Shown here one piece after another: positions 59,801 through 63,371 of a stretch of DNA of 64,000 nt. Source of the DNA: Eledone cirrhosa (lineage: Eukaryota); NCBI GenBank assembly GCA_964016885.1, contig OZ024742.1, forward strand, positions 287,246,001-287,310,000, given 5' to 3'. The notes under the pieces were generated by a model. That model was given only the letters and a program-made list of their open reading frames with translations, was not told where the DNA came from and ran no database searches. The position numbers and the translations under genes were made by a program. Numbering within the stretch: the stretch's first letter is position 1; each line of letters begins with the position of its first letter.

Positions 59801-59801
<1 letters not shown>

Positions 59802-61111
59802 TAAAAACAAATAACGAAACGAAATTAAATTTCGTTTCGTTTGTAACTCACTTTTGTATGACTGACGCTTAAACAATTAAGTTAAAAATGTACATCTACA
59901 TATGCATACTGAAATACTAGTGTGTATATGAATACACACACGTATACATATGCAGATGTAACAAGTCTTTCACTGGTTGCTTTACTGTGAGCAACCCAGC
60001 TATTCTGTATGTAAACACACAGACAAACCGGTTTTTAGAGTCATACTGGTTTTCGAGGAAACACCTTCCCTCTATTCTCCAGAAAGCCAGACAAGGAATA
60101 TTGAACTAGTTTCGTTGTTGTTACAACTCATCAGCAATATTTACCTATCTACCGGCCTTTCTGGAGAATTGTAAAAGCACATATCGTTATATGCTTTTTC
60201 TATGAAAATTAGTAGTGGGCAGACTAATTTGCATAGAGTGTGAGTACGCACCGGTTCAGCGGAGACGATAAAAACAAATAACGAAACGAAATTAAATTTC
60301 GTTTCGTTTGTAACTCACTTTTGTATGACTGACGCTTAAACAATTAAGTTAAAAATGTACATCTACATATGCATACTGAAATACTAGTGTGTATATGAAT
60401 ACACACACGTATACATATGCAGATGTAACAAGTCTTTCACTGGTTGCTTTACTGTGAGCAACCCAGCTATTCTGTATGTAAACACACAGACAAACCGGTT
60501 TTTAGAGTCATACTGGTTTTCGAGGAAACACCTTCCCTCTATTCTCCAGAAAGCCAGACAAGGAATATTGAACTAGTTTCGTTGTTGTTACAACTCATCA
60601 GCAATTTCAGTATGCATATGTAGATGTACATTTTTAACTTAATTGTTTAAGCGTCAGTCATACAAAAGTGAGTTACAAACGAAACGAAATTTAATTTCGT
60701 TTCGTTATTTGTTTTTATCGTCTCCGCTGAACCGGTGCGTACTCACACTCTATGCAAATTAGTCTGCCCACTACTAATTTTCATAGAAAAAGCATATAAC
60801 GATATGTGCTTTTACAATTCTCCAGAAAGGCCGGTAGATAGGTAAATATTGCTGATGAGTTGTAACAACAACGAAACTAGTTCAATATTCCTTGTCTGGC
60901 TTTCTGGAAAATAGAGGGAAGGTGTTTCCTCGAAAACCAGTATGACTCTAAAAACCGGTTTGTCTGTGTGTTTACATACAGAATAGCTGGGTTGCTCACA
61001 GTAAAGCAACCAGTGAAAGACTTGTTACATCTGCATATGTATACGTGTGTGTATTCATATACACACTAGTATTTCAGTATGCATATGTAGATGTACATTT
61101 TTAACTTAATT
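59801..61111. mobile_element. Retrozyme-like multimer of a 467-bp HHR unit: 1.7 units (-) joined head-to-head to 1.09 units (+), inserted in (TA)n
   Basis: 59801 and 60268 start identical sequence (period 467); 60604-61111 is a circularly permuted reverse complement with 41-nt terminal redundancy. Confidence 0.9.
60845..60889 (+). ncRNA. Minimal type I hammerhead ribozyme (mirror copies at 60097-60141 and 60564-60605 on minus strand)
   Basis: AATATTG-CTGATGA-GTTGT-aaca-ACAAC-GAAA-CTAG-TT-CAATATT; predicted cleavage after 60882. Confidence 0.92.
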
Positions 61112-61122
61112 ATATATATATA

Positions 61123-61283
<161 letters not shown>

Positions 61284-61430
61284 GGGTGTGTATGATTTTG
61301 TATAGAAGATTATATTAATAAGAGGAATTCCAACTTTGTCTGATTTACTCGTTTTATTTACAATCCTTTAAAATTTATAATGGTATTATAATGAAATAGT
61401 ATGATAGAATATTAAATTCTAAGTGTTAAT

Positions 61431-61469
61431 TGAACAAGTACTTTCATGCTTTCGCAATCTTCAGGTTCA
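61431..61469 (-). ncRNA. Minimal type I hammerhead ribozyme of the Penelope-like element
   Basis: TGAAC-CTGAAGA-tTGC-gaaa-GCAt-GAAA-GTAC-TT-GTTCA. Confidence 0.88.
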
Positions 61470-61529
61470 TAATATGTGGTGACAGTCAAGTTTGCAATTT
61501 TCAACTGTAATAAGATGGGTAAATTTCCT

Positions 61530-61680
61530 ACCTTTTATACATTTTATACAGGGAAAAGTGGCTCCAGAATGCTAAGCCCTGCAAACTGTATTTCGACCAA
61601 TCAGTGTGTAGTTTCACTGAATTACTAAAGCTGATTGGTTTAAGCGTCACGGCTGGTTGGGCATGTCTAGCGACCAATAA
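61530..61680 (-). promoter_or_regulatory. Putative Pol II promoter in the PLE terminal repeat
   Basis: Three CCAAT boxes (near 61597, 61634, 61674) followed by two TATAAAA (minus strand, about 61533-61548), 65-80 nt upstream of the HHR. Confidence 0.5.
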
Positions 61681-61783
61681 TTAATCATATCCAAAGCATC
61701 AATTGTTTTGCTATTTTTAGAAATGATGAAAATAGCATTTTCTATTAATCATCACCATCAACATCACTTTTATTATTATTATT

Positions 61784-61819
<36 letters not shown>

Positions 61820-61866
61820 AGTGGTCGTAGTCATAGTGGTAGTAGAAGTAATACCCCTAAGCGTTA

Positions 61867-63334
61867 TTATTGTTCATTTAGCTTGGGTTTGAATTTATCA
61901 ATAAAATTCTTTTCTTTGATTTTTCTCTTGATTTCACTTGGGCTGTGTAATTTGTAGAATGGGAATATTATAAATATTCCCTGTTGCTAGATGGTTACTT
62001 AGGGGTATCTGACGGACATTTGGGTCTCTGATTTGTTGACTGTGTATCCGTGCACGTTCCGATAGTGCATTTCCAGTTTGACCGACATATAGTTCTTCAC
62101 AATTCGGGCATTTAATGCAGTAAATTAGATTTCTGCTTTTGCAGTTCATATTTGCATTTGGGAATATTTTTCCAGTTTTTGTTTTCATATATTGACCGGC
62201 GTGTATGGATTGACATGTGCCGCATCGACTATCATTGCATTTAGATACAGTGAATGATTGGTCTTTGTTGTTAAGGTCAAACTTTGCTTTTGTTAGTAAT
62301 TGCTTCACATTTTTTGGCTGTCTTTTACTAAGAGTCAAAGATCGATCTGTGTTTAAGCCTTTTAATTCATTACTTTGAGCAATGATCGGTAGGTTTGCTT
62401 TGGCAGTGTTGAAGATATTCTGGTGACATGGGTTGTGTGTCATTATAAATGGTATGACCAGTTCTTGGTTTCTTCTTCCTTGGGTTGTCCTAAGTTGTTG
62501 TATAGGTATTTTTATAGCCCGCTGTATGCCATTTTCTATAAGCAGAGATGGGTATTTTTGTTTGAGCAAATATTCTCTTAGTTCTGTTAGGCGTTTGTAC
62601 CTGGTAATCGTATCTTCTACAATGGTACAAATTCTTCTGGCTAGGCAGTATGGGATGTTGCGTTTTGTATGAGGTGGATGGCACGACTTAAAATTCAGAT
62701 ATTGATGGGTGTCTGTGTGTTTATAATATATATCCGTGGTAATGGTGGTGTCGTTTTTGATTATCATTATATCTAGGAATGGTAATTTGGTCCTACTCAT
62801 CTCTTTTGTGAATTGGAGAGATGGGTGTAGGTTATTCAGGAGGATATTGAACTCGTCCAGAGTATCTAGAGATTCTGCCCAGATGATGAAACAGTCGTCA
62901 AGGTATCTCTTCCAAGATTTTTCAATGTACTTTCTAAAGTCAGTACTATATTTTTCCTCTATTTCTTGGTAGAGTTTTTGTTCTAAGTATTCCATTACAG
63001 AGTTCACGTAAACGGGAGCAAACTTCGTTCCCATCGCTGTGCCTCTAATTTGGATATAATTCTTTCCATTGAAGAAGAAAGTGTTATTTTCCAGAATAAG
63101 TTTAACTGCGTCTAATATAAATGGCGCTGTGAATCTGATGGGAATCACTTCTCTATGTTTTTCCACCCAGTATCTAACCGCCTTTATTCCTAAATCATGT
63201 GTAATGTTGGTGTAAAGGCTTACCACATCAAAACTGAGTAGAAGTGAATTCGTTTCCGTGGTTTTGGGAAGATGGGACAGGAAGTCGATATCATCCCGGA
63301 TGAAACTGGGTATGTGAATACATAGTGGTTTCAA
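61867..63334 (-). pseudogene. Penelope-like reverse transcriptase + GIY-YIG endonuclease (N-truncated, one frameshift near 61975)
   Basis: SFDVVSLYTNI, GTAMGT, KRYLDDCF, LPFLD; Cys linker CNDSRCGTC..C; LIYCIKCPNC..LYVGQT..L.ER..IH; after the frameshift FPFYK...EKNFIDKFKPKLNEQ* ends at 61867. Confidence 0.93.
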
Positions 63335-63371
63335 AATAATGTCAACATATATATATAATTATATATAATTA

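Follow-up and report, generated by a model that had tools for sequence, protein, structure and literature searches.

The window, meaning the whole 64,000-nt stretch of Eledone cirrhosa DNA that was analysed (genome of 3.0 Gb), contains a non-coding unit with a period of 467 nt, present on opposite strands in two arms inside (TA)n. The question raised by this locus was how such a head-to-head insert is made, and from what kind of RNA template. Phase 1 of the unit was set at window position 60883, the first base 3' of the predicted hammerhead cut. The coordinates, the period, the minus and plus arms and the AT join in (TA)n put forward in the original prediction were borne out (Table 1). Only one base distinguished the arms, at phase 27, where the plus arm has A and the two minus-arm units have G, a near-identity that agreed with the recent event claimed at the outset and supported recent activity. 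No coding capacity and a highly self-paired RNA, both marks of non-LTR retrozymes, were found: the longest stop-free frame of the looped unit was 70 codons, and self-pairing was strong (folding z=-10.35 versus 100 shuffles).

Table 1. Features of the inverted insertion and its flanks (window positions).
Feature	Positions	Strand	Description
Minus arm	59801..60605	-	805 bp, 1.72 units; 3' end (RNA sense) 59801 = site B, phase 303; 5' truncated, phase 433
Plus arm	60604..61111	+	508 bp, 1.09 units; 3' end (RNA sense) 61111 = site A, phase 229; 5' truncated, phase 189
2-nt microhomology	60604..60605	.	AT overlap; head-to-head join of both 5'-truncated arms
PLE-type "tail"	59801..59875	-	A-to-B stretch, terminal on minus arm only; contains 13-bp hairpin
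Complete type I hammerhead, plus arm	60834..60905	+	core CUGAUGA 60852-60858; predicted cut 60882/60883 after GUU
Complete hammerhead, minus arm	60081..60152	-	predicted cut 60104/60103
Hammerhead cut short 5' by junction	60567..60605	-	predicted cut 60571/60570
Left (TA)n target	about 59666..59800	.	
Right (TA)n target	about 61112..61282	.	abutted by 3' end of separate Neptune-like PLE

We found that the exact 30-nt hammerhead core occurred in 5,201 genome copies versus 0 for a reversed control, so the hammerhead was not a chance match; the family comprised at least 5,201 units. A looser hammerhead pattern gave 11,370 occurrences versus 13 in the control. A non-random sample of 101 loci comprised 29 taken among the best matches to the window copy, the 28 exact-core loci in the first 56 Mb of C1 (the least biased subset), 12 loci of sister subfamilies, 26 loci belonging to the subfamily of the window copy or to its closest relatives, and 6 loci of a single very young clade. 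Overlapping stretches were dropped, as was L201, a duplicate of L200; L018 and L213, which resemble one insertion present twice, were both counted. The copies were tandem repeats whose units measured a few hundred bp and each contained one type I hammerhead; they were dispersed and mobile, with retroelement ends at the 101 loci and target duplications at L216 and L060. The proposal of a retrozyme family was upheld, and the insert in the window is almost certainly a young member of it. The class of element is already known and the family is a new non-LTR retrozyme; in the main texts searched, mostly open access, neither this family nor the one-site-per-end rule set out below was found described.

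Relatives of the family were also seen. A second retrozyme family of 418-426 nt, collinear with the first, occurred at L042:1693-2237, L091-L095, L144-L154 and L183. A third, remoter non-coding relative with a hammerhead-like core was arranged head to head at L067:250-1500, L102:1100-1780 and L050:1300-1900. The unit was also found in public runs X5 and X6 of two other organisms (shares 0.44 and 0.33), and either it is not confined to Eledone cirrhosa or those runs contain its DNA.

The perfect type I hammerhead originally predicted in each unit was confirmed as to its complete core and two full copies, but stem III was minimal (one base pair and a palindromic CUAG loop), the cleavage triplet was GUU, and the third copy was 5'-incomplete. 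No Rfam family matched the hammerhead at gathering score; HH9 matched with E=9.7e-8 and 38.6 bits, under its gathering score of 52. Across six variants, hand-picked from the subfamilies and the second family, 95.6% of cells were paired and 6 of 15 pairs were changed on both sides, counts that relatedness can inflate. The predicted fold was thus supported by covariation, and its pairing was kept across families that are ~60% identical. At 239 cut-site crossings the triplet was GUU in 200 and GUC in 37, and in the six chosen variants the base preceding the cut was U, C or A, never G. Hammerhead cleavage triplets follow the NUH rule. GUU is a weak triplet, so uncut multimers could persist. From the conservation of the fold we infer hammerhead self-cleavage.

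RNA-sense 3' ends lay at one of two internal sites, ~70-74 nt apart, in 156 of 168 arms (101 loci): 65 arms ended at site A (phase 227-236) and 91 at site B (phase 300-305). Of the 12 remaining ends, 2 coincided with a gap in the assembly or the end of a contig. The 67 two-arm loci were all head to head, with 0 tail-to-tail, and comprised 56 AB, 1 BB and 0 AA loci, as well as 10 with one end elsewhere (2 at a gap or contig end). Where both ends were canonical, AB was found in 56 of 57 loci (p=4e-16), with no dependence on orientation (32 versus 24 loci). Single-arm loci ended at B in 25 cases, at A in 7 and elsewhere in 2. Similarly, the exact-core subset had 43 of 45 arms at A or B and AB in 15 of 15 loci, and the sister subfamilies (84-95% identity) used the same sites, all 9 of their head-to-head loci being AB. 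When an insertion has two arms, each site thus serves one DNA end. Moreover, contigs of public run X1, which may be the source of the assembly, turned into (TA)n at 60718 and 60644, i.e. at both sites. The 418-nt second family (~60% identical) ended mainly at the homologous sites, which a shorter hairpin leaves 51 nt apart; this spacing, compared with ~70 nt, indicated that local sequence or structure sets the sites and no fixed distance does.

The 5' ends, unlike the 3' ends, were scattered across phases, as expected of ordinary 5' truncation. Originally, the two arms had been read as circular permutations because their phases differ, and random phases among all copies had been named as support for a circular template. 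Since the 3' sites are fixed and internal and only the 5' ends scatter, differing arm phases are no evidence of a circle, and a circle is not thereby refuted. L208:1102-1944 combined, head to head, one arm of family 1 that ended at site A and one of family 2 whose end was near site B. The latter was only 91.6% identical to its nearest long relative, so that L208 may be two events and was not used as proof.

The arms of a two-armed insertion varied independently in length. At 41 simple AB loci (8 complex or non-AB loci were skipped), neither arm fitted within the other in 8, where 10.0 were expected if the arms were independent and 0 if one was folded back from the other, which argues that the ends were primed separately. 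Equal 5' phases were found at 5 of 49 junctions, with 3.3 expected. Microhomology of at least 2 nt was present at 27 of 35 flush junctions versus 17.8% by chance, with hairpins inflating the longest overlaps; the remaining 14 of the 49 junctions had inserted or unassigned bases. The predicted insertion in (TA)n was correct for the window copy, but (TA)n was not required, as other inserts lay in non-repeat DNA, (CAT)n and ATT-rich repeats, and target duplications without added (TA)n were seen at L216 (~15 bp) and L060 (~9 bp). (TA)n is a preferred, non-obligatory target. Telomerase-like addition of (TA)n by the reverse transcriptase (RT) as an obligatory step was rejected, given that the inserts at L216, L060, L032 and L045 had no added TA. 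Among 751 (TA)n junctions in the examined loci, dozens of other repeat families ended at (TA)n.

Sequence variants were used to follow the origin of the arms. Divergence between units was 0.45% within arms, 0.34% between the arms of a locus and 5.9% between loci. Alleles present in exactly two arms had both arms at the same locus in 14 of 24 cases in the first sample (0.15 expected), in 10 of 24 in the enlarged sample and, for the young clade, in 8 of 18 against 0.13 expected. Low divergence between arms together with this co-location indicated that both arms usually come from one variant. Because identical units are common to several loci, the same variant is no proof of the same molecule; three alleles that at first seemed private to L044 were found in 71 units at 7 loci, and in six of these, with arms as long as 17.6 units, 58 of 64 full units were identical. 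Of the derived alleles, 53 were carried by every unit of both arms and 5 by only some units but spanning both arms; 10 were fixed in a single arm, 33 were confined to some of the units of one arm, and 176 were singletons. The arms of L063 differed at 7 fixed sites and, judged by sequence, stem from two templates. In the 11-unit arm at L222, the full unit nearest the 5' end was another variant with 24 differences, either through a template switch or as an older copy. Variants were periodic at L054 (period 2), in one arm only of L058 (L058/L059; period 3) and at L060 (periods of ~2 and 4), and scattered shared variants occurred in the arrays of L060, L096 and L100; to account for these patterns, the DNA must have changed later, the templates must have been dimers, or templates must have been switched. 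Singletons across the family included G>A 43 times versus C>T 22 times on the RNA-sense strand. RNA editing recorded in the DNA was considered because A>G made up 7 of the 18 all-unit alleles private to the sample versus 14 of 176 singletons (strand 7:2, p=0.10), and was rejected: the L044 triple occurred at 7 loci, and stricter, denser sampling left 3 private all-unit alleles in the young clade, 0 of them A>G.

Penelope-like elements (PLEs) are known for an inverted, 5'-truncated copy and a tail that is often at one end only (PMC8557442). The head-to-head layout and one-sided extension are thus known PLE features (PMC8557442, PMC3846280), and Frangieh et al. showed that the tail lies between two internal sites at which the RT starts and that both target strands are cut and extended, and modelled the PLE protein as a dimer (PMC11167929). 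The retrozyme inserts carried the same signature, namely 5' truncation, an inverted 5' copy, a one-end tail and an AT-rich target. The claim of Penelope-type reverse transcription was supported by this signature, and that of priming from each end of a break by the AB pairing and the independent arm lengths. Two-site, two-end priming by a PLE enzyme is therefore highly likely.

The genome is rich in PLEs, including a family with many 784-codon ORFs. Next to the insert, a 5'-truncated Neptune-like PLE (window 61283-63358, minus strand) with RT, a weak GIY-YIG and a CxxC linker, frameshifted near its end, adjoined the right (TA)n and had a hammerhead-like motif of its own at ~61464. Its family had ~2,000 candidates, those scored being 91-99% identical, and apparently two 3' ends ~50 nt apart. 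Elsewhere in the window, head-to-head hammerhead-like motifs at 48725 (minus) and 48875 (plus) were identical to one beside a 784-codon PLE ORF (L139), and six further core-like motifs (659, 13545, 19104, 26069, 29829 and 49169) are probably the ends of other PLE families. The kinship of PLEs with the unit was examined in a small sample. No helper or pLTR homologue was found in 20 loci of the neighbouring PLE family, 30 loci of the 784-codon family or 30 GIY-YIG loci, and none by blastn and a DNA profile in ~0.82 Mb plus the 30 GIY-YIG loci, nor among the end clusters. Two short antisense matches to the neighbouring PLE were seen, one with E=0.035 and one a 14-mer spotted by eye. Since no sampled PLE shares the sequence of the unit, mobilisation by a PLE rests on the insertion signature.

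Two other origins of the insert were weighed against separate priming. Fold-back self-priming, in which a single cDNA turns back and the second arm copies the first (PMC3846280), would account for the variants common to both arms, and near-mirror junctions at internal hairpins were found at L046, L050 and L065. However, it predicts no locus in which neither arm contains the other, equal 5' phases, which it would produce, occurred only near the chance level, and the arms of L063 are different variants. Fold-back was refuted as a general route and is very improbable here; it may hold at single loci. Still less credible are an assembly artefact and an origin as truncated debris from the pLTR of an autonomous PLE. 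The ends do look exactly like those of PLEs, and Xenopus retrozymes resemble pLTRs according to the available text (bioRxiv 10.64898/2026.07.22.740005). Nevertheless, no PLE ORF ran into any of the 101 loci (flanking ORFs of at least 120 codons, by eye), in line with the original prediction that the copies are not plain pLTRs attached to such an ORF, and arrays reached ~31 ORF-free units. The retrozyme lacked the RT plus GIY-YIG ORF of an autonomous PLE, and the tblastn PLE matches were apart from the retrozyme inserts. As for an artefact, the varying junction phases obeyed the A/B rule, unlike mirror-read artefacts, and both ends recurred in the contigs of run X1, with the reservation on its source given above.

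We further considered the template used in this two-site priming. The predicted cut site was crossed by 141 of 168 arms; 100 arms exceeded one unit and 18 had at least three. The crossings were of exact length in 237 of 239 cases, found by a motif search that can miss badly damaged junctions, and 2 of 168 5' ends lay at the cut site (3.2 expected by chance). Just after the cut, at phases 5-30, 13 of 92 5' ends were found, a number reached in 263 of 2000 simulations and not a significant pile-up. A cut linear monomer copied from phase 303 yields at most 303 nt, yet most arms cross the cut, and new variants were fixed across whole arrays, so the monomer must have been multiplied at some point. 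A circle is the simplest means of doing so. Of the support originally offered for a circular template, the arm phases failed as proof, but other evidence, namely unit identity in long arrays and the exact cut-site junctions, favoured it, and a ligated monomer circle is the probable template. Retrozyme RNA circles have been shown in coral, mussel and axolotl (PMC7229834). In run X6, one of the runs available as contigs of unrecorded kind, a 496-nt contig covered one unit at a depth of 4.5; a DNA tandem would look alike, so the contig was given no weight.

The same two-site, two-end priming might act instead on uncut linear multimers, with long uniform arrays arising from young, uniform source arrays and DNA-level expansion or gene conversion. 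In vitro, uncut RNA was the main substrate of an anole PLE and the hammerhead was dispensable (PMC11167929). The weak triplet and minimal stem III would favour uncut multimers, the units of the youngest clade are identical across loci, so that a multimer would also give uniform arms, and the periodic and scattered variants of some arrays would fit. Against this, copying alone can only shorten arrays, while new variants were fixed in arms of up to ~18 units and often in both arms; in-register sharing of subset variants across arms was rare (5 versus 53); and hammerhead pairing was conserved between the ~60% identical families. We regard uncut multimers as unlikely. It is less likely again that the monomer was multiplied without an RT reading a circle, through template jumping between cut monomers or RNA-to-RNA copying to multimers. 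Either would explain uniform arrays equally well, and the change of variant inside one L222 arm, as well as a copy at L198 whose 5' end is at about the cut site, would fit, but the exact crossings without added bases and the lack of a 5'-end pile-up at the cut site argue against it.

We therefore favour a non-autonomous parasite of PLEs, with two-site priming and a circular monomer, as the overall explanation, at a probability of about 0.63. Tandem copies would be transcribed and then cut by their hammerheads, which probably pair up as dimers by way of the palindromic stem III, and the freed 467-nt monomer would be ligated into a circle. A trans-acting PLE RT-endonuclease would make staggered cuts, ~9-15 nt apart, in the two strands of AT-rich targets, for the most part (TA)n. 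The inserted DNA shows that reverse transcription starts at the fixed internal sites A (phase 229-234) and B (phase 303), one per DNA end. Each cDNA would run for an independent, variable length past the cut site, often for several laps, and stop, a step that the arms record in part. The truncated ends are joined, usually at a short microhomology, to give a head-to-head insert with a tail on one side, as the junctions in the DNA show, both arms nearly always deriving from the same sequence variant. An extension of this scheme, tentative at present, is an asymmetric PLE dimer on one RNA circle, whose subunits would start at A and B and both roll round the same circle. If so, a whole head-to-head array would be the read-out of a single RNA molecule, the PLE tail and inverted 5' copy would come from one mechanism, and the inserts would be genomic evidence for rolling-circle target-primed reverse transcription.

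In L1 twin priming, copying is likewise primed from the two ends of the target, and microhomology joins the inverted arms, but the second priming site is variable. The geometry is shared; here both sites are fixed and either arm may span several units. Compared with the metazoan non-LTR retrozymes in the available text of two accounts (PMC7229834; bioRxiv 10.64898/2026.07.22.740005), the family is alike in its non-coding tandems, one type I hammerhead per unit, low GC, strong self-pairing, thousands of copies and PLEs in the genome. Its unit of 467 nt compares with a typical 150-450 nt (PMC7229834) or a range of 51-972 nt (bioRxiv 10.64898/2026.07.22.740005). The axolotl HHR_Amex1 likewise has a stem III of one pair and a palindromic tetraloop, and is efficient as a dimer (PMC7229834). 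The family differs in that no pLTR homologue was found among the PLE families sampled; two start sites, arms arranged head to head and the ends of insertions are not described in the available text of those accounts. By the authors' statement, empirical support for the life cycle of retrozymes is limited (bioRxiv 10.64898/2026.07.22.740005).

With endonuclease-bearing PLEs, as far as described in the text available, the family shares 5' truncation, partial tandems, the inverted truncated copy, the one-end tail, microsatellite targets and two internal start sites (PMC8557442, PMC3846280, PMC11167929). Target duplications are also of similar size, 8-10 bp in PLEs (PMC3846280) versus ~9 and ~15 bp here. 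The retrozyme differs in having no ORF, a tail of ~70-74 nt versus 30-40, and arrays of up to ~31 units. Non-autonomous Chlamys PLEs such as MRC1 similarly form pLTRs and multicopy head-to-tail insertions, but they resemble their helper at the 3' end and Chlamys PLEs have no canonical hammerhead, whereas here a hammerhead is present and no helper match was found (PMC8557442). The origin of the tandem and inverted ends of PLEs has been called undefined (PMC8557442). The family supplies many young, clean insertions that connect the head-to-head structure with the two start sites known from in vitro work, argues against self-priming, and puts PLE fingerprints on a retrozyme; its RNA is short and defined, its two start sites are mapped, and it could be used for testing rolling-circle reverse transcription. 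Together, its value lies less in the element than in a mechanistic rule bearing on Penelope-type insertion, one site per DNA end, which was counted here and is noted in the available accounts of PLEs as optional.
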